Shown piece by piece: positions 43-27,747 of a stretch of DNA of 64,000 bases; position 1 is the stretch's first letter, and each line of letters starts with the position of its first letter. The translations under genes and the position numbers were made by a program. The notes under the pieces are model-generated. The model saw only the letters and a program-made list of their open reading frames with translations, ran no database searches and was not told the DNA's origin. Origin of the DNA: a virus (Duplodnaviria > Heunggongvirae > Uroviricota > Caudoviricetes); IMG/VR virus record IMGVR_UViG_3300027996_000012, positions 1 to 64,000 of that record. One strand, 5' to 3'.

Positions 43-3000
43 GTGACACAAACAGAAATCTACATACTCGTTCCAACCAACACAGCCGTCTTTGTCGCTG
101 GTATATATCCCGCAGATGTGCGAATACACAACCATACGGCTTCTCTCCAGGAATTTAAGCCTAGTGCGGGAACCTATACCTTCCAGAAGAAGGTCACGAT
201 GAAGACCGACAGCACTGGTGATATGCATTGGGATAACTCCAATAGTCCTGACATCAATTTCCAGGGTGACTTTGAACAGGCCATCGGTAGCACTGGTGTA
301 CCCACATGGACAAAGGGTTCCGGGACAATTGGCATCGCTGGCGGTAACACACAAGTTCTCGATTTTGATTCCTTTAGTATGGAAGAGATCGTGATGGCCA
401 AGTCGGGCACCAATGTGGCTTCGATCACTGGTACCTTCACTACTGAATATCTCATGCTGGTCACCGGCTACTGGGACTTCGGTGATGCCGACATCACATG
501 CACGGGTGACTTCACAGCCGACAATGCTGACATCAATTGGGGTTCTGGGAACATCATCATCGGTGGACACTGTGACTGGGAGGATGTCCCTGCTTACACG
601 CGCGGGACAAGCCAAACCAAGCTTACTGGAACCAGCAAGAATCTCAGCATGGGTGGTCGTGTCTACAGCCTGTGGGTCACAGGCTCATACACAACCGTTG
701 GTGGAACCAACATTGGTGTTCAAGACGGTGATCTCATCGTTGATGGTACCCTGACAGCCGGTAATACTACGGGTCTATGGGCTTGGTGGGATTCCAAGGT
801 CCAGATCAATACTGGTGGTACAATCAACGGAACCACTGGTCTTACCTGTTATCGAAGTCAAAATGGTGGTGGCCTCACAGTTCTCGATGGAACGCTGTCA
901 CCGACTACGTTCTTCATTCGTGAATCATACAGCACTGGTGTGTTCGTGGGTGGTACCTGGGACTGCATCGTATACCTCTTTGGCCAAGGTGCCGATGCTG
1001 AGATCAGGTTGAACAATGAGACCTATACCATTACTGGTCCCGTGTATTTCCAGTCCTATGATGGCTACACAACACTCATGAACAATGCCATCAACAACCC
1101 GTCATTCATCTTGCACCACAACTTCATAGCTTTATGGGTTGATGGTGGAACACTCACCTGGACTAAGGGAACTGGTTTCATTACTCTCGCGTCAGGTGGA
1201 TCTCAAACCTTCAGTATGGAAGACATTCCAACACAGACTGTTGAAGACATTTACATTACGAGCGGTAGCACGGTGACCCTCAATAGCAACATCAAAACAG
1301 ATGCTCTGCTAGTTCAAGCGGGTACTACCCTGAACATCAACGGAAAGACTCTGCAAACACTGGGATATTTCCAGGTTAGTAACGGCGGGGCGCTCACTGT
1401 GGCTGGCCTCAATGGTTGTACCATCACCGTTGGTGGCCAACTGCGTCTGTATGGGGCTTCCGGAGACAAGCTTGATCTGGGTGCCACAGCGACGTGGTAT
1501 CTCAATGTCACCGATCCGACAACCATCGTGCAACATGTCACGGTCAAGAACTCCGATGCATCGGGCGGTGTGACTATCCACAGTACGAATTCGATTAACG
1601 AAGGCAATAACATCAATTGGGCTTTCGATGGCCTCTACTGGACCAACGGTGCATCCACTGGTCTCGTGAATGATTATCGTAACTGGGGTTCCGAAAGTGG
1701 TGTGGTAGACAACGCTGGTGTGCCAGGTCTGCTTGACACACCAATCTGGGATGGCAGTGTTACGGACACCTGCACACTCGATCTCCATTGGAGCGTGGCT
1801 GGTGCCGATATGCAGGCTGGCTTCACCGGGAAGATCGACGGAGCAACCTACAACTTTACCTCATCGGGAGATTGTGACTTTGATGGCGGCGAAGTTGATT
1901 TCGGAACCGGAACCTGGCAGTTCGGCGGTTACGCTGACTTCATCAATGTGACCACCATCACTAAGGGTACCGCGACGATCAAGATGGTCACGGCCGGAAA
2001 GACCCTGTCCCTGCAAACGACAGATACCTTCTGTGACATCTGGATCGCGGCCAATACCACCATAGTTGCAAGCGCCTCCGGAGCATGTGAAGGGCTAGAT
2101 GTTGATGCCACCCTTACCGTGAATACCGGGTCGATACTGGCTACCCGTGGTGTCGTTGATGTTTCTGGTACAATCACTGGAACCGGGACCATGGTGGTCT
2201 ATGCTGGTGGCATTGGTGAAGGTATTACTGGGATGTCAGGCACTATTGACATTGCAACCTTGTTTGTCTATGTCACAGTAGGGACAGCAGGTATCGTACC
2301 AATGGTGGCTGCTCAATACGATAGCGCACTAACTTATATCGGATCACAAGTAACGGGTGGCGAATTCAATTTTGCTGCCACAACCACGACCTTCACCGGA
2401 AATGTTAGCCTTGTTGCCCTTGACGGTGGTGATACTGCTCATTTCAAGAACTCAACGAACAATCCATCCTTGGTCTTCCAAGGCAACGTGAACAAGACCG
2501 GGGCTGGTTCCACATCGTGGACCACCGGCTCTGGCACCATCACCTTCTCGGGCACCACTGCGGATCAGCAGGTTGCATTTGACGGGAACTCAGTAGAAGA
2601 CATCATCATGAATAAGGGTGCTGGTAAAGTCACCCTTACGGCTGCTCTGTCATGTGAGAGCTTAGCCCTCAATGATGGGGACTGGGATGCCAATGACTAC
2701 AACGTCACTGTCTCTGGTAACGTCAATCTGGACAATGACTCAATTCTCATGGGTGATGGAAACACATGGGAAGTCAACGGCTCATGGGACAGCAAGGATT
2801 TGGCTATCGGGGCTGGCCGCGAGACTGCTACGCTGAAGATGACTGGTACTGGCGTCACACTGAACATGATGTACGCAAGCGGTGTATACTCGCTGTGGTT
2901 TGCTTCGGGATGTTCGGTCACAATTGATGACAATACCAAAGGTGGCCATGTCCATAATGGTATCTTGACCGTGGATGGAACCGTCTCAATGGGATCTGGA

Positions 3001-3426
3001 TGCTCCCTACAGTTATTTGCATATACCACTGGTAAGCTGAGAGTCAACACCACGGGGTATGTTACCGGAGCGGCTGGGCAATTGTGGGTCAGAGACGCCA
3101 GTGAAGGGGCCGGTATTGATGTCATGGATGGAGTAGTTGATTGTCTCTGGATAATCCTGGAAAAATGGCTGTCCACAGGTGTAATGGTTGGTGGTATCTA
3201 TAATGCTGTTGGGGTACAAATTCGTTCCAGTAACTCATATGATTGCACATTCAAGTTCTCAGATGATACCTATGTCTTTGATGGAGCTACGGGTGTCCAA
3301 CTTCGTGCGTTAAACGGTTGGGATATGGCCATCGATAATACCAACGGGGCACGGATCATTTTGCCTGACGGCGGTATCAGCATTAACGAAACCGGCGGCG
3401 GTGTCGTCTCTTGGGTGGAGGAATAA
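43..3426 (+). CDS. tail fibre-like beta-helix repeat protein (1127 aa); reading frame is open back to nt 1, so the N-terminus may lie upstream of the window
   Basis: Long ORF with a G/T/N/S-rich composition and repeated ~90 aa modules (WTKGTGFITL..., WTTGSGTITFSGT..., NVTVSGNVNLDND). This is typical of right-handed beta-helix fibres. It is followed by two more fibre genes. Confidence 0.8.
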   Translation: MTQTEIYILVPTNTAVFVAGIYPADVRIHNHTASLQEFKPSAGTYTFQKKVTMKTDSTGDMHWDNSNSPDINFQGDFEQAIGSTGVPTWTKGSGTIGIAGGNTQVLDFDSFSMEEIVMAKSGTNVASITGTFTTEYLMLVTGYWDFGDADITCTGDFTADNADINWGSGNIIIGGHCDWEDVPAYTRGTSQTKLTGTSKNLSMGGRVYSLWVTGSYTTVGGTNIGVQDGDLIVDGTLTAGNTTGLWAWWDSKVQINTGGTINGTTGLTCYRSQNGGGLTVLDGTLSPTTFFIRESYSTGVFVGGTWDCIVYLFGQGADAEIRLNNETYTITGPVYFQSYDGYTTLMNNAINNPSFILHHNFIALWVDGGTLTWTKGTGFITLASGGSQTFSMEDIPTQTVEDIYITSGSTVTLNSNIKTDALLVQAGTTLNINGKTLQTLGYFQVSNGGALTVAGLNGCTITVGGQLRLYGASGDKLDLGATATWYLNVTDPTTIVQHVTVKNSDASGGVTIHSTNSINEGNNINWAFDGLYWTNGASTGLVNDYRNWGSESGVVDNAGVPGLLDTPIWDGSVTDTCTLDLHWSVAGADMQAGFTGKIDGATYNFTSSGDCDFDGGEVDFGTGTWQFGGYADFINVTTITKGTATIKMVTAGKTLSLQTTDTFCDIWIAANTTIVASASGACEGLDVDATLTVNTGSILATRGVVDVSGTITGTGTMVVYAGGIGEGITGMSGTIDIATLFVYVTVGTAGIVPMVAAQYDSALTYIGSQVTGGEFNFAATTTTFTGNVSLVALDGGDTAHFKNSTNNPSLVFQGNVNKTGAGSTSWTTGSGTITFSGTTADQQVAFDGNSVEDIIMNKGAGKVTLTAALSCESLALNDGDWDANDYNVTVSGNVNLDNDSILMGDGNTWEVNGSWDSKDLAIGAGRETATLKMTGTGVTLNMMYASGVYSLWFASGCSVTIDDNTKGGHVHNGILTVDGTVSMGSGCSLQLFAYTTGKLRVNTTGYVTGAAGQLWVRDASEGAGIDVMDGVVDCLWIILEKWLSTGVMVGGIYNAVGVQIRSSNSYDCTFKFSDDTYVFDGATGVQLRALNGWDMAIDNTNGARIILPDGGISINETGGGVVSWVEE

Positions 3427-3428
3427 CC

Positions 3429-5756
3429 ATGTCGATTTGGATTACAGGCGCAGAAAACAAAAGCATTGATCACGGGTCGCTGGAAACAGATCCGGTGAGT
3501 GTGAATCTCCGTGAAGGCTGGTCCTTCAACGGGCTCAGTGATTATGTGTCATTCGCGGATCACGCGGACCTGACATTCCCGGATGCTGATTGGAGCTTTG
3601 GTGGTTGGATCAAACCGGTAGATAACGGTGAAGCAGCCGCAATTCTCTTCAGTTGGAACTATCCAACGCATCCCAGTATTCTTCCATACCTCAATATGAG
3701 CACGCTGAAAATCTGGGCATACTGGAATGATGGTACGGACAACATCAATACCGATTTGGGCGACTTCGTATTTGGTGCGTGGCAACACATCCTATTTGTA
3801 CGAACTGGTACTTCACTCAAGTTGTATGTAGACGGGCGTGAAACTGGATCAACACCAATCGGCAATGTTGATGCCGTGAACGGGGCCGGTGCCATGTATG
3901 CTGGAGTCCGAACGGCTCTGGACATCTACTGGTATGAAGGTGAGATGAGTAACTGGGCCAAATGGGATTCAGCCCTAGCCAAAGCGGACAGGGTTGCTCT
4001 TGCTGGCGGTATTGATGCCCGAGTCGTGGATACAGGGAACCAGAAGTGGTGTTGCCCGATGAAGCGTGGCGACTACTCAGTAGTTGGTGACACCTTTGCT
4101 GTAACCAACAATGGCACCAGCGATGGAACCGCTTACACAGCCACGTTGACAGCCAGTATCAACTGTGCTGGCCTCAAGGTCTACCAAGGAACCTTCGATG
4201 CTGACACCTATGGGCTCACCCTGCGGGGAGACACACTGCTGGCCAACAACTCAGTTCTGTTCGGGAATCAAACGTGGGATGTCTCTGGCGACTTTGATGA
4301 CCAGGAACTCGATGCACACACAGCAGAGACCAGCACACTGAAGCTCACAGGAGCCACCAAGACTCTCTCGCGGCCCACCACGGGTTCTGGAAACTACTTC
4401 GAGAATGTCTGGATCACAGGTTCATACACCATGGATACAGGTCACCTTCAGTATGATGGTGATGCCACGGTAGACGGTAGTCTGTCTCTCGGCAGTGGGC
4501 TGTCCTTCACCGGATACTTCAATGCTGACCTTGACATCAATGGTACTGTAACGGGCCTTGGGCAGATTTCCATGTACGGGATGTACGCCGCCCATGGCAT
4601 TGTAGGAAACGATGGGACGCTCACTTGTGCCAATCTCTACATTGATGACCCGGAAGCCACTTCAGTTTTTGATCCAGGCGACTACTCTGGACTCACTGGT
4701 ATTCTCTATATCAGGGACCGCACCACCTGGGCCGGTGACTCGACACTGAAGTTTGCAGCAGGCACCTTCACGTTTGGGGACATCGTCGCCACAACCCAGG
4801 GCGCGGATGATCTCTATTTTGATTGCACCAACAACCCGACCATCATTTTCACTGGAGACTATTCAGAAGTCAATGACTCAACCGGGGTAGTGTATTGGAC
4901 GCCAGGTGCAAGTGATACCATCACCTTTAGCGGAAGCGACGATCAGGATATTGGTTTTAGCGACTGTATTGGAAACGTAGTTGTCAACAAGTCTGGTGGT
5001 ACACTGACCTTGACCGCAAATCTTTGTTGTGCCAGTCTTGATATTCAAGACGGGAATTTCGATGCCAACGGTTACAATGTGACCATCAACGGAGACTTCA
5101 CGCTCACCAATCTGGGTGACACGCTCACCATGGGCTCAGGCACTTGGGAATGCAGCGGTAACGTCAATTGGGTTGGCTGCGGAACTATCGCCCCTGAAAC
5201 ATCGGTACTGAAACTGACTGGCTCTGGCAAGACTCTGGATGCTACCGTTGATGCGTATTGCAGAAATCTGTGGATCACTGGATCATATACGATCCCAGTC
5301 ACCACAGGGTGGTTTGGGGCGAATGCTGGTACCGTAACTATTGATGGTACGCTTACCAGCAACAACGGATTTGCAATTCTTGTTGGTACTTTGGATTTGA
5401 ATGTGGGCGGCACCGTAACCGGCTCGGGTTACATGAATGTCCATGCATCTAGTATCACGACACTGGACGGAACTTGGGACACAGCTATCGGATACATTTC
5501 TGAGCCCCTTGCTTGGACCAATACCTTTGCACCTGGTACCATTGCTTGTGCTGAAATGAGGATTCGTGCTATTGGTGCCGATGACCGGGGAATCCGTTAT
5601 GACTCTGGCACACATATCTACACTGGCAATGTGATATTCCGCTGCTATGGTACTGGAAACCTCACTGTTGACACCACTACCAACAGTCCGATCATTGATT
5701 TTAGAGGCAACTTGGGCGTACTAGAAGACAGCACCGGTCAAGTGATCTTCGCATAA
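3429..5756 (+). CDS. tail fibre protein with an N-terminal LamG/concanavalin-like domain and a C-terminal beta-helix module
   Basis: ATG at 3429 follows the RBS GGAGGAATAACC. The motifs DWSFGGWIKP ... WAKWDS match a Laminin_G_3-like domain. The C-terminus carries the shared module WTPGASDTITFSGSDDQ...NKSGGTLTLTANL...FDANGYNVTINGDF. Confidence 0.8.
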   Translation: MSIWITGAENKSIDHGSLETDPVSVNLREGWSFNGLSDYVSFADHADLTFPDADWSFGGWIKPVDNGEAAAILFSWNYPTHPSILPYLNMSTLKIWAYWNDGTDNINTDLGDFVFGAWQHILFVRTGTSLKLYVDGRETGSTPIGNVDAVNGAGAMYAGVRTALDIYWYEGEMSNWAKWDSALAKADRVALAGGIDARVVDTGNQKWCCPMKRGDYSVVGDTFAVTNNGTSDGTAYTATLTASINCAGLKVYQGTFDADTYGLTLRGDTLLANNSVLFGNQTWDVSGDFDDQELDAHTAETSTLKLTGATKTLSRPTTGSGNYFENVWITGSYTMDTGHLQYDGDATVDGSLSLGSGLSFTGYFNADLDINGTVTGLGQISMYGMYAAHGIVGNDGTLTCANLYIDDPEATSVFDPGDYSGLTGILYIRDRTTWAGDSTLKFAAGTFTFGDIVATTQGADDLYFDCTNNPTIIFTGDYSEVNDSTGVVYWTPGASDTITFSGSDDQDIGFSDCIGNVVVNKSGGTLTLTANLCCASLDIQDGNFDANGYNVTINGDFTLTNLGDTLTMGSGTWECSGNVNWVGCGTIAPETSVLKLTGSGKTLDATVDAYCRNLWITGSYTIPVTTGWFGANAGTVTIDGTLTSNNGFAILVGTLDLNVGGTVTGSGYMNVHASSITTLDGTWDTAIGYISEPLAWTNTFAPGTIACAEMRIRAIGADDRGIRYDSGTHIYTGNVIFRCYGTGNLTVDTTTNSPIIDFRGNLGVLEDSTGQVIFA

Positions 5757-5767
5757 GGAGAGGAAGC

Positions 5768-8700
5768 ATGTCAATCAAATTCACAGGCACCGCGAATCAG
5801 AGTGTTGACCTTGCTGGTCGAGCATTTGCTGATAGCGTTGAAGTCGATAAGTCTGCGGGGACGCTCACTCTCACTGGTGATTTCGGTGCTGCAAGTCTCG
5901 TTCTGACAGATGGTAATTGGACCACGTCCACATTTGATGTGACGATCAACGGGAACGTAACCTTCAACATCACTGACACCATCAATATGGGCACGGGCAG
6001 TCTCTGGACCATCGCTGGCAACTTCGATCCGTACTTCGCTGGAATCACATTCAATCGTCAGACTTCAACCATCAAGATGACCGGATCTGGTAAGACTTGG
6101 TGGGGTGGTAATGCTGACTGTCTCTACAATCTCATTTGGATTGCGTCTGGCGCAAGCATCACGCTCACGAATACCGTTCAGGTTTATGGGTCTGCAAGCA
6201 ATGCAATCCGTATCGATGGGACGTTTGATCTAGCCGGGAACGGCTGTATCTGTTGGACAGCCGCTGGTGTTGCTGTTGGTGCCTCTGGGGTGGTTGATTC
6301 CACCGCTGCCGGGCATGTTCGGTTCAAATCCAACTCAGTTGGTGTGACCCAGATGTTGGGGACCTGGAACGCACGGCTTGAAATCCAGCAGCCTAAGAGC
6401 ATGACCCTTGTGGCAGCAACCTACGGGGACGGCACGGCAACGAAACACTGTGAAGTGATCTTCACACAAGACACAGACAAGCTTATCCTACCGGCCAGTA
6501 CCACAATCTTCAATATGGACTTCGAGGTCGAGAACACTGGGGCCTTTGTTGGTACTATCGATATGGATACCAACGATGCCAGCCTCAATGTCACTGGAAA
6601 TTTCGCTGTGGTGAATTCTGGTGCTGGATCAATCGTTTGGGACAAAGGCACCGGTTCGATCACATTCAGCGGAACAGCGGCACAAAGCTTCACCTGTATT
6701 TATACCATTGAAGACGTGATCATCAACAAGTCTAGCAACACGCTTACATTGGCCAGCGATATGGTCACCGATAGCATTACGGGAACCACGGGAAGCTTCA
6801 ATGCTAGCACCTATGATATCACCACAACTACAAGCGCAATCTTCGATTTCTCAACGCTCACGATGGGCACCGGCAACACATGGACCGTTGGAACCACATT
6901 TGACTGTGAAGATTGTACCACCGTCACGACTGGCACAGCAACCCTGAAGCTTACCGGTACAGGAACATTTAAGACAGGGCTTCATTATGTCTTCCATCTA
7001 TGGGTCACATCGACTGCTACCATTACGGTAGACGATGGCTATGGGCAAGTTGGTGCAGAGACAGGGACCCCCACCTGTCTTATCGATGGGACTATGATTC
7101 TTACCGACTGGCTAATTTCGGCATGGAAATGCCAGATGACTGTCTCTGCCACGGCCAATATCAGTGGTGTATCCGGGCTCTTTATCAATCATCCACACAC
7201 TGGTGGTGGTATGGTAGCCTACAGTGCCAGTGCCACTGTCACATGTACCAACCTGAGATTCCATTACCCAATGGGTACCGCAGTATTGATCCCGGCTGAT
7301 TATTCATCGATCACCTTGACTGATGTCTATGTCGGTAACGCCACCGCCAGGGAGATAAAACTCAATTCTGGCACTTACTCGTTCTTCAGTTTGTATTTCC
7401 GAGAGACCTCATCAGGCACACTGCATGTCAATAATGTGAACAACCCGGATATCAATGTGGGTCGCCATTTCCTGGTGGACGGTAACGGGCTTACATATAC
7501 GGCTGGAACTGGTACCATCACAATGGACGGAAGTGCTGACCAAGGTTATTTCAGTACGAGCACTCACCAGATTGAAGACACAGTGTTTGCCAAAACCGGT
7601 GGCAAAGTAGTCTATATCTGGGATGACTCCACGGTTGGTGGGAATCTCGACATCAATGGCTGTGTGGCCGACTTCAATAATGCCAAGAAGTCTCTGACGG
7701 TATGGGGTGATGTAACCATCAATGCAACAGGTACATTGCTGATGGGTGACGCAACGTCCTACTTCAATGTCTATGGAAACTTCGACAACTCTAACAGTCT
7801 CACAGCAAACATCACTCGCAATACTGGTGTCTTGGTCATGAAGGGTTCTGGCAAAACACTTCAGACAGAAGCTGTTGGTGGCGTTGGTAATTACATAACT
7901 TCCATCACCATTGATACCGGAGCAAGCATCACCCAGGTTAATGACACAGTGCGTGTCTATGACGGTAATCTCAAGGTGTACGGTACGCTCACGCTGTCTA
8001 CCTATCTCATCCCATACTACTCGGCGAAGACATATCTGTACTCTACGGGTGTAATCAATGGCGCAGGTTATTTGTATCCATATCTCCCAAGAAATGGGTG
8101 TGGTATTCTGTTACTTGACGGTTCTTTGGCGTGTGCAAATGTCTATGTGAATTTCCACCCAACATACCCGACTGCCGTCTTTGTGGCCGGGGACTATACC
8201 GGTCTTTCCGGGAAGTTCTATTTCCGAAGTACATATACCAGTAGCGATCCTACTGTGTATTGGACACCTTCTGCTGGAACCTACCAGTTCAAGAATGTTG
8301 AATTCCGTACCTACACTGGGGACGGCACATTTACCATTGAAGGTGACACTGGTAATCCGAATTATGAAATCAGCGGCGACTTTCTGGTTCAGAATCTGGC
8401 TGGCGGCACGGTTACTTGGGATGCTGGCTCAGGTACTATGACCTTCAACGGCTCGGGTGCGCAAACACTTACTTGCCCCGCTAACATGACCTATGAAGCG
8501 GGCCGCGTGGACAAGTCAGGTGGGACCCTTACCGCTGTCTGTACCAACCTTGGATTTGCTAACACATTCAATCTGGTGAATGGCAGCTATTCACAAACCG
8601 GTGGAAACCTTTGGACCACACATATGACCCTGGCCGGTAGCGGTACCTTCACTCAAAATAGTTCCGTGTACCTCACTGGGAACTATCATGACTCGGCCCA

Positions 8701-11700
8701 TACCGGTACACAAACAATGAATGCCGTGCAGATGTATGGCGCAGGGGCCACGATGACTTTCCGGGCTCCAAACTCCACCATTGCAAACCTGTATATCGGG
8801 AACGTATACGGAGTTGCATCAACCACAATGATTGCTGGCCACCTCTATGTTGGTACCGCTCTTATTGTTGATGGTAATGGTAGCTCGCTTACAATCAATG
8901 CTGGTAAGGGTTTCTCAATGCTTAATGGCAGCACACTTGATTTGAATACTGGCGGCACCATTACTGGGGCGGGCTATCTGCATTTCTGGTCCGCAGCAGG
9001 AATATCTGACATTGGTGGTACCCTCTCAATTGCTACCGTGCGATGCTACAGCACTTTGGCAGGAGCGGTCTTTGTACCAGGTACCTACGAGTGCGGTGAG
9101 TTCATCATCATCTCCAACGGTGGAGGGGCTCATACCTTCCCATTCCGGGCAGGTGATTATGTGTTCTCGAATGGTAGTCTTCAGTTTGAAGCATACGGCA
9201 CCGCATCGAATACACTCACCATTGACTGCACCACTTATCAACCCGTGACCATCGACGTTGCTGGTGACCTCATTTGGGACACACTGGCGGGGTCCAACGT
9301 CAACATTGTTGTCAATTGTTCAAGTCGAGATGTTCGTTGGCACATTGGCGGGGACGTAGTGGATGCCAAATCAGGTAGTGGTACCGTGACCTGGACCAAG
9401 GGTACCGGGTACATTTATCTGGACACAGACGACAATGATAGCGGCACGGTGGACTTCCTCAACCAACAAACGGATACTGTGATTCAAGGCGAGTGGCCAT
9501 CTTACTACTTCAACGGTACCTCCGCAGAATTTGAACTGGATGATCCCCTACCGTTCCCAGGTGGTTCTAGCACGGCCAAATGGTCTATCGGTGGCTGGAT
9601 TAAACCAGCGGGTAAGCTCAATGCATTTGACTACGAAGTGATCTTTGCCACCGCAGTAGGTAATTCCAATTGGATAAACGCGAACAACTCCCTCTGTCTG
9701 CTAATGTACCAGTATGATCATGCTACGTATCCAGGAAAGCTTCGGTTTGCTATGAAGGACGGCGCTGGAGCCACAATGGATTTCGCTAGCACTGCTACCT
9801 TTCTTTTTAGCACAGGTAACGACCGCTGGCGTCACATCCAGGTACAGCGTAACAACAACAATATCTATCTGTACATTGATGGCGTTCTTGACAGCACTGT
9901 ATCCTGTGCAGCGGTTGGGGCCATTGACACCAGCGATCATTTCAGCCTGGGTAACTTTGTGGGCACAACAGCAGCCTACTGGTTCCATGGCTACATGCGA
10001 GAATGGTCCAAATGGCAGTCTGGTAAGAACTCCAGTCCCCATGATGACAGCATCAGTATCATCCATGGTGGACGCGAGAATATGGACTGGTCGCTAATAC
10101 TCGATAGCGACGATGAGTGGTACAACGGTTTGAACACGACCAACACCAACTGTGTCCTGGATACAGGTGATGATAAGGACGTTGCCCTCACTGGCCCGAT
10201 ACGTCCGGCCAACTACTATGGTCGGTATGGTACCTTTGATCCAAACGGGCAAACCATCAATAGCCCTGGTGTAGTGGCTCTTGGGAACAAAGACGTGTAC
10301 GGCACTCTTGATCTCATGGACGGATGCACGATCACCTGTGATACCTTCTATGTTGGTGGTATCGAGATGGATGGCTTCAAGTGTTTGGCTCAGTCGGCCT
10401 GGTATCTTAATGTTACCACCACCGGCTACTTCTTTGATTCCCAAATTGCTTACTGTGACGCATCGAGCAGCACTGTGGTACCCACAGCCAATCCAATATG
10501 CATAGATCGCGGGAACAACATCGGCATTGACTTCATTGATCCTCAAATCTACCTCTTGGATAATGGACTAACTGCTTGGGCATCAGGCTGGTGGGCCACA
10601 AATCATGGTGGGGCCCATACACGCTTCCTTGCTAGAACACAACAGAACGGCGTCTGGGGTTGTTCTGTGCAGCAATCTGGTAACCACATCTATTGGGCCA
10701 GTACGGTCCATAATGCGATCTCACGCGCCAGTCTTGATGGTCAAGATTTTGAGTACATCAAGACTGGTATCCCCACTCCATACGTGATTACAGTGTGTGC
10801 CGAGCATGGTTACATATGGTACAGTGACTATGTGGGCTACACAGTCGAGCGGGTTGATTTGGACGGCACCAATCAAACCAGTATGGGAACGGCTTCATTA
10901 CCGTCTGGCCTAGCTGTGGACCCAATCAATAAGAAGCTGTATGTCGCCGAAAAGGGCAACGACATCATCTATTCGATGAACTTCGATGGCACCAGTAAAA
11001 CGGCTGTCCATACTCTGGCAGCACTCAGCGAGCCCCGGAAATTGACCATTGACTACATCAATGGGATGCTATATTGGACTGAGGACAATAGCTTTGGCAG
11101 TGGTAATCGAATACGTAGTGGAACTACGGGAGGCGCAAGTCTCACGACTATCTACACAGGCTATGTGACGGACATTGAATGGTCACACCAACAAAATCGG
11201 CTGTACATGAGTGACGACCAAGGATATTGCTGGCGAATGTACGGTGACGGGACCAACCTCCAGACTGTGGTTGATGAGTCTGCGACCACCAGACCTTTCT
11301 ATGGTGTTGGCGTCCTTGATGGTATTGGTGGCGGTGGGAGTCCAGGAACCTGCCCCGATGGACATGATGATAGGCTGTTCGTTGTGGATACCGGAACCAC
11401 TGACGGGATTAGAATGCAGGATCGTGCCTGGGGTACACCGGCAGACTACATGACCGGTCGTGGGATTGCTGCCTCCGATTGCAAGGTTGATGATATCAAT
11501 GGCTGGTTCTACTGGGTAGACAACGTCGTGAATGCAATCATGCGATGCCGACTCAATGGTACACGACCAGAGATGATCATTGACAACAGACTTGACGGCA
11601 CCAATACTGTGAAATGGATTTGCTTGGCTCCGGACAAGGGTTATCTATTCTACGTGAAGACACCTGATAACCAACTTCGACGCTGTAACCTTGATGGTTC

Positions 11701-22510: not shown

Positions 22511-25278
22511 TTACTCAGTTTTGGTGACCCGGAGGTAACCATCATCCAAAAAACATCTCGGGGTGGTTCTTATGTCCAAACCCTTTGGCGGTGGGCTAAA
22601 AGACATGTTTCCGATACTCACGTTACGTGAATGACCCCAGCCTACAACGTAGGGTTGTGTAATCTCAGCACGTACTCTCTTCAGTGTCCAAGTAGCCTTG
22701 TCAGTGGCGGACAGTGTTGCCTGGAATGTGTTGTAGAAGTCCTCTAGGACGATACGTTGTCCGGGGAATTCAAAACACTTTTCTGCCATGAACTCTTCTA
22801 ATGGGTTCATGGATGTCCTTGCCAACATCTCTTTGCTTTCCGTCATGACTACCGGGATACGCATTCTGGTGGTCATCTCTGGGAGGACCGTGCGAATCAA
22901 TGTTGTCATGAAATGTGGTGCTTCGGCCCTGAGCAGATCTTTCAACATGGGTTTGGGAATCTCGGTAGGTTCACCATGTTTATCAACCGGGAGGGCGGGG
23001 ACATAGATCGATGTAATACGACTGTCACCTGGAAAGATTGGAGAATGCCCCTGCTTGTTCGCAGTGTGAATGAACTTCAGATAGTTGGGTACCAAATAGG
23101 GTTCCAAGCCCTTTTTGTGGACCAAGAATGTATCTGAGGTTATCCAGTCTTTGATGCGATTGTATGTCCGCTCACCTGCTTCCCGCAGGTTGACTTCCTC
23201 AAGTCGGGCAAAGATGGTTGTCGCCAACTCGCTATTGAACCCACCCGAACTCAGGGCTGCTTGGTTGGCCGTCATTACAGCGTTTTTTGTCACCAACAAT
23301 TCGATGGCATCACCAAGAATAGATTTACCACTGTTCTGTGGTCCCCAGAGGAATAGGTAGGGTAAATGATTCAGGGGTTCACGCAATGCACTGGCGATCC
23401 ACAACCGAAGGTAATCGCCACCACGGAATACCCCATTCTTCATTGCCCATGGGTTTTTCCCAAGAGCTTGATCTAATTCATGTCCTGAATGTTCCAGAAC
23501 ACTGTCCCAATGTGGGTGATGCGGTTCTTCATCCAACGGAATATCAGCCGGTTGGTATACCCATTGTGGCGCATCACGATTCCATAGGCGTCCGCCGGGT
23601 TCTTCAGCACCAAATGGTGTCATGGTCAATTCCCACGCATTGTGAACTGCATCGCCCAACAAGTTTTCTGTTTCTGTTCCACTGTAACCCAAAGCTCGAA
23701 TGTAGTTGCGAACATTGTCCTTTTTCAAGTTCTTCCATTCATCGTTGACTATTGTCGCCCACCCAATTTCTTCCTTTTCACGGCACAGGAACCGCATTGT
23801 ATGATCATGCTCGTACAAAGTGGTTTGTGTTTTTTCAGCCGAGTTTGTTACATTCTCTAGGCGTGTCCAGTGACCTTTCTTCGCTAACCAACCAGGAGCT
23901 TTGATTCCAGCTTCGTCATCATCCTTTTCCTTGGCGATCTTAATATGCAAGCGATCATCTTTGGTCAGTGTGAGTGATGTCTGTCGGGTCTTGAATGTAT
24001 CAGGTACGTCAACCGTTTTACCCATGGCTTCAACGGCTGCTAAGGCATCAGCACCCGTGTTGAAGATATACGTACCCGGCTTGTCACCATCTTCCAGACC
24101 GCCTAAAGCCACTGCTGCATCAGATAATGAGGGTGCTTGGTTGAAGTAACACTGTGTCCAACCTTCAGGGGATTGGTCCCATGTGGGGGATTCAACAGCA
24201 CCAACACCAAACCGAAAAACACGCCAGCCGCCTTGCTTTAATGGAAACATAAAGCAGTTTGGTTTTGATGGGTCACCACCACCAGACAGGGTTTCAAAGA
24301 AGCCCTTCAGTTTGCGACCTTCGTTTGCGTGCTTCTCATAAACCTCTTTGATCGCAATGGTATGCGTTTGAAGCAGCCAATGGTCCGCGACCCAGATTGT
24401 TGAAAACCCAGAATCTTCCAGTTCTTCCATCAAGGCTTTGTGGGCGTCATCAAGTGGGACATTCTTTCGAGCCTTTGCCAGCTTCTCGAATTTCCCAGTC
24501 TCGTCCTTGGATGACCCTGTCAAACCTAGAACTCGGATATGTCGTTTTCGTCTGGAGACAACATCGATATTATCACGCCAGTTGATCGGTATCTTGTCAA
24601 ACTTCTCCGTAGCTGGTGTGATAAGCTTCAAACCGTTACTCTTACCATCCAAAATGTCACGCCGGAAACACCAGATGATATTGCCACAGACATCCATACT
24701 GGAAGCCAGATCGAAGGCTGCCTCTTTAGCCATAACGCCAAGCATCGCCCGCCCAAGTGCAGCATGTTCTGTATGAGTTTCTGTACGAGGAGGATTCTTG
24801 AAATGGATGTACAGATGAAGTCCGTTTCCACCGGTACTACGGCGTGTCTCAATCCAGGGAATGTCAGCAACTGCTTGTTCAACAGCCTTCAACTCTTCGG
24901 GTTTGATTCCCACCCCAGGGGCATGACCCACAATGGAATCAAAATCGTATCCGACAAACTCGCTCTGACGATCTCGCCAGTTCCAACCAGACATGCCGAC
25001 AGCATGTGCATATTTGGAGAGCGAGAAAGATAGTGGGTAGTCCTTCCATTCGGGGATCTTATCTGCCCCTTTTGGGATACGGATGTTCCACCAACGAGTC
25101 TCGCCATCTTCGTAGGTGTTCCGGCGACCCTCTACTGGCTCGCCGTTCAACTTCATCACATTGATCTGGGCTTCCATACCAGCGTGGTATAACGCGCCCA
25201 GTTCTGGGGAGTTGGGGGAATTATGGGTAAGAAAATACTTGAGTGCTTCAGTTACGGTTGGCAGGCTATTTGCTGACA
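22511..25278 (-). CDS. DNA primase-polymerase fused to an SF3 (D5-like) helicase
   Basis: The probable start MSANSLP at 25278 follows a GGAGGA RBS. A prim-pol-like N-terminal half is followed by the Walker A stretch YLFLWGPQNSGKSILGDAIELL typical of SF3 helicases. Confidence 0.8.
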
Positions 25279-25475
25279 TACAGTGTTGTCCTCCATTTGG
25301 CTCTACCCTACAATACGGTACTTGATCGGCGAATCTTTGACGAAAGTCTGAATTTGCCGAAAATCCGAATAAGGAAGCCGCGATCATTCCATCATAATAC
25401 GCCCGAACCCCCTGTGTCAAGAGGCTTTGTGTTAAGAAAGCTGCAATGGTCAAACTGTGTGGTGGCGGCCGGTTG

Positions 25476-25959
25476 AAAGTCACCTCACTTCAAATATCCG
25501 AGTGAGGTGACTTTGGGGCAAAAGATACAAGTGGTGCGAAATGGTTTGATATTTACCCCAGGGTAAGGGAGGTTGCTTTATGATTTCAAACTTTTGTTGT
25601 TTCTCTTGATGGACCGAAAACAGCTAAAACCCTGTGTCTTTTGAACCCCATTTTCATAAACCACATACTGAAAAGAACTTACGTCGATTAGTGAGGTGAC
25701 TTTTGGTAGTGAAAAGTCACCCCACCTCGAAAATCCCAGGTGACTTTTCACTACCAAAAGTCACCTGGCTGACAAAAGTCCGGCACTATTTTGAGAATTC
25801 TGAGAAACTTTCGGGTTTTGTCGAAGATCACGGCAACATCTACCGTATAATAAGATGTATCACATTTTGCAGGTTTTGAAAGTCACCAGCATTGAGATTC
25901 GAGACTGAGGTGACTTTTCACCAATCTCAGGTGACTTTTCACTACCAAAAGTCACCAGG
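25476..25959. repeat. array of palindromic iterons GGTGACTTTT-N7-AAAAGTCACC (candidate parS/operator/origin)
   Basis: Perfect inverted repeats at 25476-25514, 25693-25721, 25736-25768 and 25928-25959, with extra half-sites at ~25877-25888 and 25908-25923. The 7-nt spacers are GGTAGTG or its complement CACTACC. Confidence 0.75.
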
Positions 25960-25974
25960 TAAGATAGGTAAACT

Positions 25975-26919
25975 ATGCCGGATATTCCAGTCGTACAGGT
26001 TATACCGATAGAAAAAATACACGAGCCACCGATGGTACTCCGTGTGGTGAATCGTCAGATTGTTGAGTATTTGGAACTGCGTGACTCGCTAAAGGAACAT
26101 GGATTCATCAATAGCTTGTGTGTGCGACCCGCCCCACAACGTGGTCCAGACATGTATGAAGTCGTCGATGGTTTGTACCGGTTGAATTGCTGCCGTGATC
26201 TTGATATCCCCCGGGCTCCGTGTATCGTCAAAGACATCTCTGACCGTCTTCTATTGTCGCTTCAAATTCAAGCCAACGCAATTCGCCCAGAAACCACCCA
26301 GATTGAGTATGCCCGTCAGCTTCTCAAGATTATGGAATTCGACACAAGTCTTCGATTGGTAGACCTAGCGTGTATGATTCACAAGTCCTCTGTGTGGGTG
26401 AAAAACACACTTGGGCTATTGAACCTGTCTGTGCCGCTCCAGAAAAAAGTCGAACGCGGAGAGATTGGAGCAAGTAATGCGTATTGGCTGTCCAAGATGC
26501 ATTCATCGTTTCAGCGTGATTATGCGGAACAGGCAGAAACCATGTCTATCTCAGAATTCGCAGCCATGGCAAAGGAGCGCATCAAAGCCTTCAATGATGC
26601 CGTGCGTCAGGGGAAAATGGAAGTTTTCTATTCCACGCGGTACACACCATACCCCCACCTGCGTCCGTTGAAAGAGATCGAGGCCGAGCGGCTTAGTATG
26701 GAAGCAGCAACTCGGGTGATGCCTCAAGCGAAATGTCGTACCCCTATTGACGGGTGGCGTATGGCTCTTAGTTGGGTTCTGCACATGGACCCCGATTCGG
26801 TGGCCCTTTTACACAAATACCATCAGAACCAGGAGCAACGTATTCAAGACCGCCTCCAAGCTCGCCGAGCCGCACTCATCGCTGAAAGAAAAAAGAAGAA
26901 ATCCGATTATGACACTTGA
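25975..26919 (+). CDS. ParB-like (ParB/Srx N-terminal domain) partition or nuclease protein
   Basis: IPIEKIHEPPMVLRVVNRQIVEYLELRDSLKEHGFINSLCVRPAP...YEVVDGLYRLNCCRDL matches the ParB N-terminal box. The gene sits directly downstream of the iteron array. Confidence 0.7.
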   Translation: MPDIPVVQVIPIEKIHEPPMVLRVVNRQIVEYLELRDSLKEHGFINSLCVRPAPQRGPDMYEVVDGLYRLNCCRDLDIPRAPCIVKDISDRLLLSLQIQANAIRPETTQIEYARQLLKIMEFDTSLRLVDLACMIHKSSVWVKNTLGLLNLSVPLQKKVERGEIGASNAYWLSKMHSSFQRDYAEQAETMSISEFAAMAKERIKAFNDAVRQGKMEVFYSTRYTPYPHLRPLKEIEAERLSMEAATRVMPQAKCRTPIDGWRMALSWVLHMDPDSVALLHKYHQNQEQRIQDRLQARRAALIAERKKKKSDYDT

Positions 26920-27012: not shown

Positions 27013-27747
27013 ATGAGCGATGAGCAAGCCCTGGCCACTGTGGCCAACCTTGGGGATCTTCTCCCCGCAAGCACCAACCTTGGACTGGATGTTATCGAGT
27101 CCTTTGCGTCGGTGAACTCGTACCTGCCCCGAATGCAACTTTTCACCAAGGGCACGTACATTGACCAAGGAAAGATCGCACCTGGTCATTACGGAGTGAT
27201 CAGCGGTAAGGAAGTTGCCGATCATGGTACGGAAATCGATGTTCTGGTACTGGCCGTGCGTGCGAAAGCACTGGACATGTCGGATCGAGATAACATCATC
27301 TCGCGGTACGTCCCCGGTGAGGCCGAGTTTGAACGGATTCGTGCGGATGCTGAAGGCAAGAATACATCTTGCCAGTGTGGTCTGTCGTTCCTTATCTATG
27401 AGGCGGCATCCAATACCCTCTTTGAGTTCTTCTGTGGCTCAAAGTCGGCGCAAACAGAATCAAAGACGATTCTGAACTTCATGGCCGTTACGAAGGAACA
27501 AGCAGCCCAACAGGCTGAGCTAGGCCGTATTGTTGAACCGCGTCCCATGTCCCCCATGACCTTGAAAGTCCGGTACATCCAGAAGAAATTCTCCTGGCAC
27601 GTTCCGGTCGCCGTCCCCTGCTCGACACCGATTGATGTCGGTCTCCCCCAAGAGCAACTGGTGGCGCAGGTCAAGAAGTTCCTTGATCCCAAGGACGAAG
27701 GTGGCACCGAAGTAGCTGAGGATGCTACCGGCGGTCGCGCAGTGTGA
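27013..27747 (+). CDS. hypothetical protein (244 aa)
   Basis: Clean ORF with RBS, no recognised motif. Confidence 0.55.
   Translation: MSDEQALATVANLGDLLPASTNLGLDVIESFASVNSYLPRMQLFTKGTYIDQGKIAPGHYGVISGKEVADHGTEIDVLVLAVRAKALDMSDRDNIISRYVPGEAEFERIRADAEGKNTSCQCGLSFLIYEAASNTLFEFFCGSKSAQTESKTILNFMAVTKEQAAQQAELGRIVEPRPMSPMTLKVRYIQKKFSWHVPVAVPCSTPIDVGLPQEQLVAQVKKFLDPKDEGGTEVAEDATGGRAV

Follow-up and report, generated by a model that had tools for sequence, protein, structure and literature searches.

Plasmid RK2 encodes a ParB homologue, KorB, with an intact CTP-binding motif, the partner proteins IncC and KorA, and operators scattered over the plasmid. The phage locus described here resembles KorB and other autoregulatory centromere-binding proteins in pairing a ParB-family helix-turn-helix (HTH) protein with palindromic sites at or near promoters, its own putative promoter included. 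As in those systems, sites lie both upstream and downstream of promoter elements, and action at a distance or bridging is plausible. The phage locus differs in several respects: its ParB has a degenerate box II and no ParA partner that could be found, its sites sit in one spacer, and each is 27 bp long with an oriented centre, whereas the KorB site is a 13-bp palindrome.

A second set of relatives is suggested by the gene on the other side of the spacer. Phage P4 alpha and pRN1 ORF904 share the domain order primase, superfamily 3 (SF3) helicase, winged helix, and the primase domain of P4 alpha is of the DnaG type (PMC2777425). In the annotated P4 record, ori and crr are clusters of an 8-bp repeat, TGTTCACC, in both orientations, with 16 type 1 repeats; a literature text search for TGTTCACC returned primer sequences only. 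The locus studied here shares with P4 the domain order, a winged-helix fold match and short repeats with GGTGA that run both ways and form more than one cluster, but its primase domain looks AEP-like, the two winged helices are only 12% identical, and, while the P4 sites lie far from the alpha promoter of a phage without ParB, the element here stays beside parB.

Two further comparisons are looser. P1 parS is likewise composite, its short motifs being set in several orientations and bound by a ParB with flexibly linked DNA-binding modules, and we take the TTTTCAC of the half-site described below to resemble the P1 box A motif ATTTCAC. P1 parS, however, lies downstream of parB, relies on ParA for partition and on IHF for bending, and belongs to a plasmid prophage, none of which was found here. 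In the SV40 core origin, HSV oriS/oriL and the papillomavirus E1/E2 origin, mirror-symmetric sites flank an AT-richer centre between divergent replication genes, and large T antigen and E1 are SF3 helicases, like the phage primase-helicase; these are eukaryotic viruses with unrelated proteins, so that the likeness is an analogy only.

The replication module and its ParB-like protein

The genes of the conserved layout in the window (the whole 64-kb stretch of phage DNA that was analysed) are:

22511-25279, minus strand: primase-helicase, 922 aa, with N-terminal primase-polymerase-like (AEP) motifs, then an SF3/DUF5906 NTPase and a C-terminal winged helix
25975-26919, plus strand: ParB-like protein, 314 aa, with ParB_N and HTH_ParB domains
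27013-27747, plus strand: conserved 244-aa protein (p244) downstream of parB, an OB-fold protein resembling single-stranded-DNA-binding proteins

This layout, with the primase-helicase leftward and ParB followed by the OB-fold protein rightward, was present in 84 of 85 two-gene loci from metagenomes and prophages, and no ParA belongs to it in any of the 84. The phages and prophages that share it are apparently associated with Planctomycetota, and at least one relative is an integrated prophage in a 4.2-Mb contig. Searches for cultured relatives by megablast of 6.5 kb gave no match, tblastn of ParB and the primase against 50,697 GenBank phage records gave remote matches only, and protein scans of IMG/VR returned no relatives for ParB and five loci for the primase. 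Homologues of ParB and of the primase number roughly 120 each. The literature search found no relevant description of a phage ParB and primase system.

The ParB-like protein scores above the Pfam gathering threshold for both ParB_N (E 5e-7) and HTH_ParB (E 8e-6), and its best sequence match in the PDB is Spo0J (1vz0, E 2e-12). Its predicted recognition helix lies around HKSSVWVKNTLGLL, at residues 136-149. Judged by sequence, the CTP-binding motif GxxRxxA is degenerate: box II reads G-L-Y-R-L-N-C in place of GERRxRA and so is missing the arginine pair of CTP-dependent ParBs, and across 26 family members only G66 and R69 of this box are invariant. Within the conserved module, Pfam recognises a sequence-specific DNA-binding domain in ParB alone. 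The last ~90 residues of the primase-helicase are, however, predicted to form an RFX/P4-type winged helix (pLDDT 92-98), which in the model resembles the origin-binding domain of phage P4 at the level of the fold.

The module around the spacer also encodes an exonuclease and a dNMP kinase. Neither it nor ten further ORFs of the window yielded a ParA-type ATPase, and ParM and TubZ were equally missing from the module and the tested ORFs. The 244-aa protein, which has no Pfam or PHROG match, was considered as a hidden ParA and rejected on account of its OB fold.

A half-site array between divergent genes

Between the genes for the primase-helicase and ParB lies a gap of ~700 bp, in which a 9-bp motif, GGTGACTTT, occurs in ten exact copies, counting both strands, from 25476 to 25956. 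Chance alone would put about 0.005 exact copies into 700 bp, and the only two others in the window (265, plus strand, and 2626, minus strand) lie within ORFs and are not accompanied by the usual flanks. The spacer has no one-mismatch variants of the motif, and the pattern GGTGACTTTT-N7-AAAAGTCACC, matched three times, was not matched once in 100 shuffles. The repeats are thus real and far above chance expectation. Nor is the array an assembly artefact, as the spacer is base-for-base identical (100%) in two independent assemblies of the phage; microdiversity footprinting of the spacer with these two other assemblies accordingly gave zero variation. The elements of the spacer are as follows:

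25310-25318, minus strand: CCGTATTGT, a mirror copy of CCGTATAAT, 32 nt before the primase ATG
25391-25420, minus strand: sigma-70-like promoter candidate of the primase-helicase gene, TTGACA-18-TATGAT, 11 of 12 matches
25476-25514, no strand: cluster 1, everted pair AAAGTCACC-N21-GGTGACTTT, also a 14-nt inverted repeat with an 11-nt gap
25520-25690, no strand: AT-richer spacer between clusters 1 and 2, GC 0.36-0.40 over ~170 bp against ~0.50
25695-25721, minus strand: palindrome P1, GGTGACTTTT-GGTAGTG-AAAAGTCACC, with CACTACC as its minus-strand centre, oriented towards the primase gene
25739-25765, plus strand: palindrome P2, GGTGACTTTT-CACTACC-AAAAGTCACC, oriented towards parB
25774-25806, no strand: conserved non-repeat block AAAGTCCGGCA(C/G)TATTTTGA(G/A)AA
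25843-25851, plus strand: candidate parB -10 element CCGTATAAT, by consensus match only
25879-25917, no strand: cluster 3a, second everted pair AAAGTCACC-N21-GGTGACTTT, a direct repeat of cluster 1 (74% identical)
25930-25956, plus strand: palindrome P3, identical to P2 and part of a 37-nt direct repeat (95% identical)

In three clusters, the array combines three palindromes, each perfect over 27 bp, with two everted pairs and a further half-site. The sequence-only reading had counted at least four palindromes and two clusters; it was right that half-sites exist outside the palindromes, these forming the two everted pairs, and that the whole site occurs in both orientations, the N7 centre being GGTAGTG in one copy and CACTACC in two. 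P1 and P2 together make a perfect 28-nt inverted repeat (25694-25721 and 25739-25766, with a 17-nt gap). Half-site centres are 18-30 bp apart in three relative orientations, everted and direct order occurring as well. P3 ends 18 nt before the parB ATG at 25975, rather than 16 nt as first read, and the primase-helicase starts at 25279, not 25278.

Cluster 1 is upstream of the candidate primase promoter, 56 bp from its -35, and both hexamers of this promoter are kept in three relatives (L006, L011 and L008). The candidate parB -10 element is conserved as CCGTATAGT and CCGTATAGA in L006 and L011 and, if used, would place cluster 3 within the parB leader. The same two relatives keep the block at 25774-25806 despite having different half-sites; a sigma-54 reading of this block, inspected by eye, was discarded because its spacing is off by one. 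The AT-richer stretch, which had been proposed to be flanked by the two clusters first counted, lies between clusters 1 and 2, and its difference in composition is modest. It contains no DnaA box within one mismatch and no exact IHF site.

Conservation of the element and concerted evolution of its arms

Among 76 non-identical spacers of related uncultivated phages, the best inverted repeat scored at least 13 in 70, with a median of 19.5 against 7 in shuffles (maximum 10), and its sequence is specific to each lineage. Its right arm typically stops shortly before parB (median distance 22 nt), and in 69 of the 76 parB is the nearer of the two genes. Where the spacer is long (624-1152 bp) and the repeat compact (L019, L022, L048, L051, L071 and L073), parB is 21-43 nt away from the repeat and the primase gene more than 500 nt. 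This positional tracking of parB counts for ParB as the reader. The shortest related spacers measure 113-126 bp. In some relatives the arms reach 40-67 nt, and in two (L006 and L011) the single elements are non-palindromic. One phage in which the genes are not divergent (L061/L097) has no such repeat before either gene, and another locus (L101, which carries a prophage) has the same 49-nt sequence before both genes, in the same orientation relative to each.

In a lineage of 20 loci, the arms contain a sharply bounded 14-bp core, TAYAMAWRASYSCM, in which eight columns vary between phages. Not one arm-to-arm mismatch was observed within the core, against ~64 expected if the arms evolved independently, while the columns flanking it show mismatches at the expected rate. 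At the sequence level, a core free of arm mismatches is the signature of a recognition site that co-evolves with a phage-encoded reader. Arm mismatches comprise 39 G.T, 30 A.C and 64 others and thus have no G.U bias, and non-complementary spacers of 5-8 nt separate the conserved boxes within the arms; both features favour recognition of double-stranded DNA over an RNA hairpin.

Protein-DNA covariation over 2256 column pairs pointed to ParB residue 140 in the strongest pair and residue 138 in the third strongest, both inside the predicted recognition helix. The ranking is confounded by shared ancestry, and it leaves out the primase winged helix, the full gene being present in only 7 of the 20 loci. 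With the repeat hugging the parB start and the top covariation in the recognition helix, ParB is, on these sequence data, a plausible reader and the best single candidate.

Candidate readers of the array

The comparisons support a selected array of protein-binding repeats in the control region that parB shares with the primase-helicase gene. Our preferred, though tentative, reading is that it is a lineage-specific, mirror-symmetric set of autoregulatory operators bound by ParB in the control region of the replication module. ParB units would recognise a 9-13-bp half-site, (TGA/CA)GGTGACTTT(TCAC), either alone or, in pairs, as the 27-bp palindrome. Occupancy of cluster 3 (25879-25956), which falls downstream of the candidate parB -10 and ahead of the start codon, would shut off parB and the genes after it. 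The P1/P2 pair and cluster 1 would lie upstream of the divergent promoters, and bridging of the three clusters by ParB could couple primase-helicase expression to the level of ParB. That ParB is the binder, that the promoters lie where we place them, and that binding represses are all points that we infer. The confinement of exact half-sites to the spacer counts for the operator reading. Several features count against it, namely half-site centres 18-30 bp apart in three relative orientations, where canonical HTH ParB proteins bind 16-bp palindromes of adjacent half-sites, the restriction of sites to one spacer in 64 kb, which a global regulator of the KorB type would not show, arms of 40-67 nt that exceed one binding site and may include duplicated promoter or leader sequence, and a primase-helicase with a candidate DNA-binding domain of its own.

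This last feature leads to a serious rival, possible if less than probable, in which the spacer is a replication origin of the P4 or iteron type. The half-sites would then be iterons bound by the winged helix of the primase-helicase, two opposed SF3 hexamers would be loaded on the inverted sites and the AT-richer DNA between the clusters melted, and ParB would be a neighbour or accessory. The domain order is that of P4 alpha and pRN1 ORF904 (PMC2777425), short repeats in both orientations are found in P4 ori and crr as well, and the half-sites GGTGAC here and GGTGAAC in L011 can be set beside GGTGAACA in P4, although this likeness spans only 5-7 nt and could be chance. Ten 9-mers in three clusters, direct and inverted and in non-coding DNA, are what such an origin should contain; the initiator should have a sequence-specific origin-binding domain, for which the winged helix is the candidate; and the spacer sits within a replication module. 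Cumulative GC skew, proposed as a check on the origin, does have a local minimum at 25-27 kb, but the minimum coincides with the switch in gene orientation, and we set skew aside as origin evidence because the two are confounded.

Other observations speak against an origin. In long spacers the inverted repeat follows parB and not the primase gene, and in spacers of 113-126 bp, where both genes must already have their promoter and ribosome-binding site, a separate unwinding element would not fit. AT enrichment is weak, and DnaA and IHF boxes were not found. Between lineages with unrelated arms, helix 3 and the wing of the primase winged helix stay fairly constant. No such repeats lie near a chromosomal homologue of the primase that has no ParB (L100); four GGTTCACCCC repeats upstream of that gene were considered as primase-bound iterons and rejected as a CRISPR mini-array (29-nt repeat, 61-bp period, single orientation, AT-rich flank, likeness to the type I-E repeat of E. 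coli).

An intermediate proposal would give both proteins a part. On the sequence of its box II, ParB would be an orphan without the canonical CTP-switch motif, serving as the origin-recognition or regulatory partner of the P4-like SF3 primase-helicase, binding the element by its own gene and recruiting or positioning the helicase. We consider this unlikely.

It also seems improbable that the repeats are duplicates of promoter, operator or leader sequence belonging to the divergent gene pair and are bound by a different factor, of phage or host, such as a repressor, activator or sigma factor. The 49-nt sequence before both genes of L101 is what such a duplication would leave, the arms of several lineages contain TATA(C/G)-like -10 elements resembling CCTATAGTAT upstream of the L097 primase, and the lack of the repeat in the non-divergent L061/L097 also fits a general feature of divergent promoters. 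In the window, however, the -10-like motifs CCGTATAAT and CCGTATTGT fall outside the GGTGACTTT repeats, and the array motif is confined to the spacer and is hence no general phage promoter. The concerted variation of the arms, moreover, calls for a fast-evolving phage-encoded reader, and the module has no other conserved DNA-binding protein.

The sequence-only reading had combined an operator array with an origin and a centromere. A selected array whose position is kept across the 76 spacers has held up; the centromere has not, and we find it very unlikely that the array is a true partition centromere (parS) of a plasmid-like prophage whose ParB works with an unrecognised or host-encoded motor. 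The ParB_N and HTH_ParB domains are those of a partition protein, and palindrome clusters adjoining parB do resemble the centromeres of self-regulating systems, but neither the module nor the tested ORFs yielded a ParA, ParM or TubZ, the gene after parB encodes an OB fold, box II (GLYRLNC) is without the arginine pair, and at least one relative is integrated in a contig of 4.2 Mb. A parS site is a compact palindrome of ~16 bp bound by a ParB dimer; palindromes are present here too, 27 bp long and with an oriented 7-nt centre.

Least probable of all is that the palindromes act as hairpins, in a parB leader RNA or as extruded single-stranded DNA serving as priming or loading signals, rather than as duplex sites: the predicted folds are stable (RNA, 25858-25990, -37 kcal/mol, z = -3.2; single-stranded DNA of P1/P2, 25685-25775, -32 kcal/mol, z = -10), the arms are perfectly complementary even at positions that vary between phages and the loop CACTACC is presented on both strands, but arm mismatches have no G.U bias, non-complementary spacers separate the conserved boxes in relatives, the single elements of L006 and L011 are non-palindromic, P1 and P2 are both upstream of the candidate parB promoter, Rfam matches were only to miRNA hairpin families (20-27 bits against thresholds of 50-140 bits), and the start codon and ribosome-binding site are exposed in the predicted leader fold.

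Taken as a single locus, the array is unexceptional among regulatory or origin repeats. If ParB is its reader, it provides a defined cis element and a specificity code for a clade of orphan, ParA-less ParB proteins without the usual CTP motif, and the eight variable positions of the 14-bp core, which always change jointly in both arms and make an unusually clean set of natural variants, could be used for studying how HTH specificity evolves in the ParB family. If instead the primase-helicase is the reader, the element would show where replication begins in a large group of uncultivated phages and would extend the P4 alpha paradigm. Should ParB prove to be a partner of the helicase, the locus would parallel, in a bacterial virus, the E2/E1 arrangement of papillomaviruses, and the 14-bp core would be a fast-evolving determinant of replicon specificity (incompatibility). 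Under either reader, the layout of primase-helicase, mirror-symmetric element, ParB and OB-fold protein is an annotation marker for this phage group.

The array between the primase-helicase and parB genes

The spacer between the divergent primase-helicase and parB genes does contain a repeat array, as the sequence-only reading had proposed: the exact half-site GGTGACTTT occurs ten times, on both strands, from 25476 to 25956, and the full pattern GGTGACTTTT-N7-AAAAGTCACC is matched at three places, whereas 100 shuffles gave no match. A search of the spacer for one-mismatch variants of GGTGACTTT returned none. In the remaining 63 kb of the window the half-site appears just twice, lacking the usual flanks and inside a 1127-aa ORF at 43-3426 (265-273, plus strand; 2626-2634, minus strand), and with about 0.5 copies expected by chance in the window these two are probably chance matches. 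The spacer and its surroundings have the following features.

22511-25279, minus strand: primase-helicase, 922 aa; ATG at 25279 with GGAGG ahead
25280-25974: spacer
25310-25318, minus strand: CCGTATTGT, mirror copy of the candidate parB -10 element, 32 nt before the primase ATG
25391-25420, minus strand: strong sigma-70-like candidate primase promoter, TTGACA-18-TATGAT (11/12), kept in close relatives
25476-25514 and 25879-25917: everted half-site pairs, AAAGTCACC-N21-GGTGACTTT, comprising the four half-sites outside the palindromes
25695-25721: perfect 27-bp palindrome P1, N7 = GGTAGTG
25739-25765: perfect 27-bp palindrome P2, N7 = CACTACC
25774-25806: conserved block, AAAGTCCGGCA(C/G)TATTTTGA(G/A)AA, kept in the related loci L006 and L011
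25843-25851, plus strand: CCGTATAAT, conserved, best parB -10 candidate by consensus match
25930-25956: perfect 27-bp palindrome P3, N7 = CACTACC
25975-26919, plus strand: ParB-family protein, 314 aa, with ParB_N and HTH_ParB domains

The centre was rightly said to occur in both orientations (GGTAGTG in P1, CACTACC in P2 and P3), but the perfect palindromes number three rather than at least four, and the half-sites form three clusters, numbered here from the left, rather than two. The array lies between the two genes as claimed, at distances from each that had been given slightly wrongly. P1 and P2 jointly make a perfect inverted repeat (28 nt, gap 17 nt). P3 repeats P2 directly over 37 nt (95% identical), and the everted pairs are direct repeats of one another (74%). 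By the orientation of the centre, P1 points to the primase gene and the other two palindromes to parB. Half-site centres within clusters are spaced by 18, 21, 26 or 30 bp, the GC content is 0.36-0.40 between clusters 1 and 2 as against about 0.50 elsewhere, and the spacer is base-for-base identical across two independent assemblies. The AT-richer part also holds a nine-codon mini-ORF (25580-25609, plus strand; MISNFCCFS) with a strong AAGGGAGG ribosome-binding site ahead, for which conservation was not apparent in L006 or L011 when the sequences were read by eye.

The block at 25774-25806 is kept in L006 and L011 while their half-sites differ, and is thus a separate element; as a sigma-54 site its spacing is one base off. 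Each of the two genes has a copy of CCGTAT(A/T)(A/G)T upstream, the two being mirror images, and distant relatives have a kindred motif, GCGTATAAACGC or GCGTGTAAACGC, 20-55 nt 5' of the primase ATG. Motifs of this type may be a family-specific promoter element. In the primase leader (25336-25362) are two TTTG(A/C)CGAAA repeats 17 nt apart, and at the matching position L008, another close relative, has three perfect tandem copies of the 11-nt CAAATCTTCGG (5386-5422).

Conservation of an inverted repeat beside parB

Protein searches, contig look-ups, IMG/VR and one metagenome scan yielded about 100 loci for comparison. The primase-helicase gene runs leftward and the ParB gene rightward in 84 of the 85 loci with both, followed, where the contig reaches, by a homologue of the 244-aa OB-fold protein encoded 3' of parB. 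Relatives' contigs extend to 100-370 kb, and one copy sits within a 4.2-Mb contig, so the group includes integrated prophages; the NCBI names of homologues indicate Planctomycetota (Thermoguttaceae, Thalassoroseus). No cultured relative of the window phage was found by a 6.5-kb megablast or by tblastn against 50,697 GenBank phage records, which gave remote matches only. The module on the 4.2-Mb contig has two ParB paralogues (327-1331 and 6679-7557) and a spacer with 49-nt arms, 96% complementary and 229 nt apart. The 1214-aa primase-helicase of L005 (5992-9636) contains intein-splicing and LAGLIDADG domains, and the 1219-aa homologue of L004 (2305-5964) shows the same alignment gap of about 300 residues relative to the window protein.

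Spacers in these relatives span 113-1152 bp (median 234). Among 76 non-identical ones, 70 contain an inverted repeat scoring 13 or more; the best score per spacer has a median of 19.5, as against 7 in shuffled spacers, where the highest was 10. The arms measure 14-67 nt, with a gap usually of 33-45 nt, and vary in sequence by lineage. Of the two genes, parB is the nearer to the repeat in 69 of the 76; the right arm ends a median of 22 nt before the parB start (interquartile range 8.5-32), and six long spacers place a compact repeat at 21-43 nt from parB, with the primase gene >500 nt away. The closest relatives, L006, L011 and L008 (ParB identity 52-60%), retain an inverted pair 159-206 nt 5' of parB; L006 and L011, in which the single elements are non-palindromic, have a further copy of the arm, which stops 2-8 nt short of the parB start. 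Half-sites in these relatives read GGTGCCTTT, GGTGAACTT and GGTGATGTG, with only GGTG / CACC invariant. At L061/L097, the sole locus with codirectional genes (about 3 kb apart, inside operons), no large inverted repeat was found upstream of either gene; ahead of the primase gene are a terminator and a promoter-like motif of the CCTATAGTAT type. The element is thereby linked to the divergent control region as such.

In a 20-locus lineage marked by CTATACA, each arm has an outer box and a TTTTCAG-like inner box, separated by a spacer of 5-8 nt that is neither conserved nor complementary. The outer box holds a sharply bounded 14-bp core, TAYAMAWRASYSCM, in which eight columns vary among phages and yet no arm-to-arm mismatch occurs, against about 64 expected if the arms evolved independently; adjoining columns mismatch at the independent rate (all 21 columns: 29 observed, 98 expected). 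Such a pattern is expected of a recognition site that co-evolves with a reader encoded by the phage. Simple gene conversion would run past a 14-bp edge, and a continuous hairpin would not accommodate the unpaired fixed-length spacers. Members such as L090, L024, L014 and L086 carry a GACGCGG box about 7-20 nt before both the parB and primase starts, and a third copy stands beside the left arm, so the control region is mirror-symmetric over about 110 bp.

Candidate readers of the array

We tentatively suggest, at slightly short of an even chance, that the array is an autoregulatory operator array read by ParB, the sole protein of the module with a Pfam-recognisable sequence-specific DNA-binding domain. 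The repeat's position tracks parB across relatives, and the variable residues of the ParB recognition helix, HK-x-x-x-W, differ among lineages. Among 2256 pairs of protein and DNA columns in the 20-locus lineage, ParB residues 140 and 138, both in this helix, rank first and third for covariation, a test confounded by shared ancestry and leaving out the primase winged helix, before which most contigs end. Glutamate at residue 140 accompanies the xGCC core variant in 6/7 cases, as against 0/13 without it. If 25843-25851 is the -10 element used, cluster 3 (25879-25956) would fall in the parB leader and its occupancy would block parB expression, while the P1/P2 pair and cluster 1, upstream of both promoters, could act through protein bridging of clusters; both promoter positions are candidates from consensus matches, and we infer the repression.

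It is possible, if doubtful, that the repeats are instead origin iterons read by the winged helix of the primase-helicase. This protein, labelled from its SF3/DUF5906 core alone, has AEP-like motifs (DFDSITGH, GxHLYVYF) in the family alignment of its otherwise unannotated N-terminal 600 residues and ends in an RFX/P4-type winged helix. In P4, ori and crr comprise 16 annotated copies of TGTTCACC, lying either way round, which on the other strand read GGTGAACA, compared with GGTGAC in the window and GGTGAAC in L011. A further point is the setting, a module of replication and nucleotide-metabolism genes in a large phage (dNMP kinase-like protein, RNase T-like exonuclease, dCMP deaminase, SPFH protein, ribonucleotide reductase, ThyX, helicase). 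However, the primase gene is often far from the repeat, helix 3 and the wing are rather conserved over lineages with unrelated arms, and such repeats are absent from L100, a ParB-less primase homologue on the Thalassoroseus pseudoceratinae chromosome. Between a tRNA gene (9062-9146) and that homologue, which an excisionase-like HTH gene follows, L100 has four 29-nt CGGTTCACCCCCACGTGCATGGGGACTTCG copies recurring every 61 bp, with AT-rich DNA alongside (9412-9636); rather than primase iterons, these resemble a CRISPR mini-array of type I-E (29+32) on a small integrated element. The window also has a gene for a second, short DUF5906 NTPase (242 aa; 35841-36569, plus strand), 10 kb downstream of the primase-helicase.

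A different reader, or a duplicated promoter and leader sequence, is unlikely. The proposal of a true partition centromere fares worse and seems very improbable: no ParA was found in the conserved module or among the window ORFs scanned, at least one relative is chromosomally integrated, the protein encoded downstream of parB has an OB fold, and box II of ParB is degenerate. The nearest solved relatives of the window ParB are Spo0J, Noc and ParB, and G-L-Y-R-L-N-C stands where the CTP-binding motif GERRxRA is expected; throughout the clade (V/I)DGLYRxxx replaces it at residues 60-72, with G66 and R69 alone invariant in the region among 26 family members, so this ParB may not be a CTP-dependent clamp. 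A hairpin acting as RNA or single-stranded DNA is the least credible: arm mismatches across the 76 spacers (39 G.T, 30 A.C, 64 other) are not biased towards wobble pairs on either transcript strand, an Rfam search gave no meaningful match, and the predicted fold of the parB leader sequesters neither the start codon nor the ribosome-binding site, all of which favours recognition as duplex DNA.

Elements of this type are already well known. What is new is the breadth of conservation and the clean covariation of the two arms in an uncultivated phage group with a ParA-less ParB.
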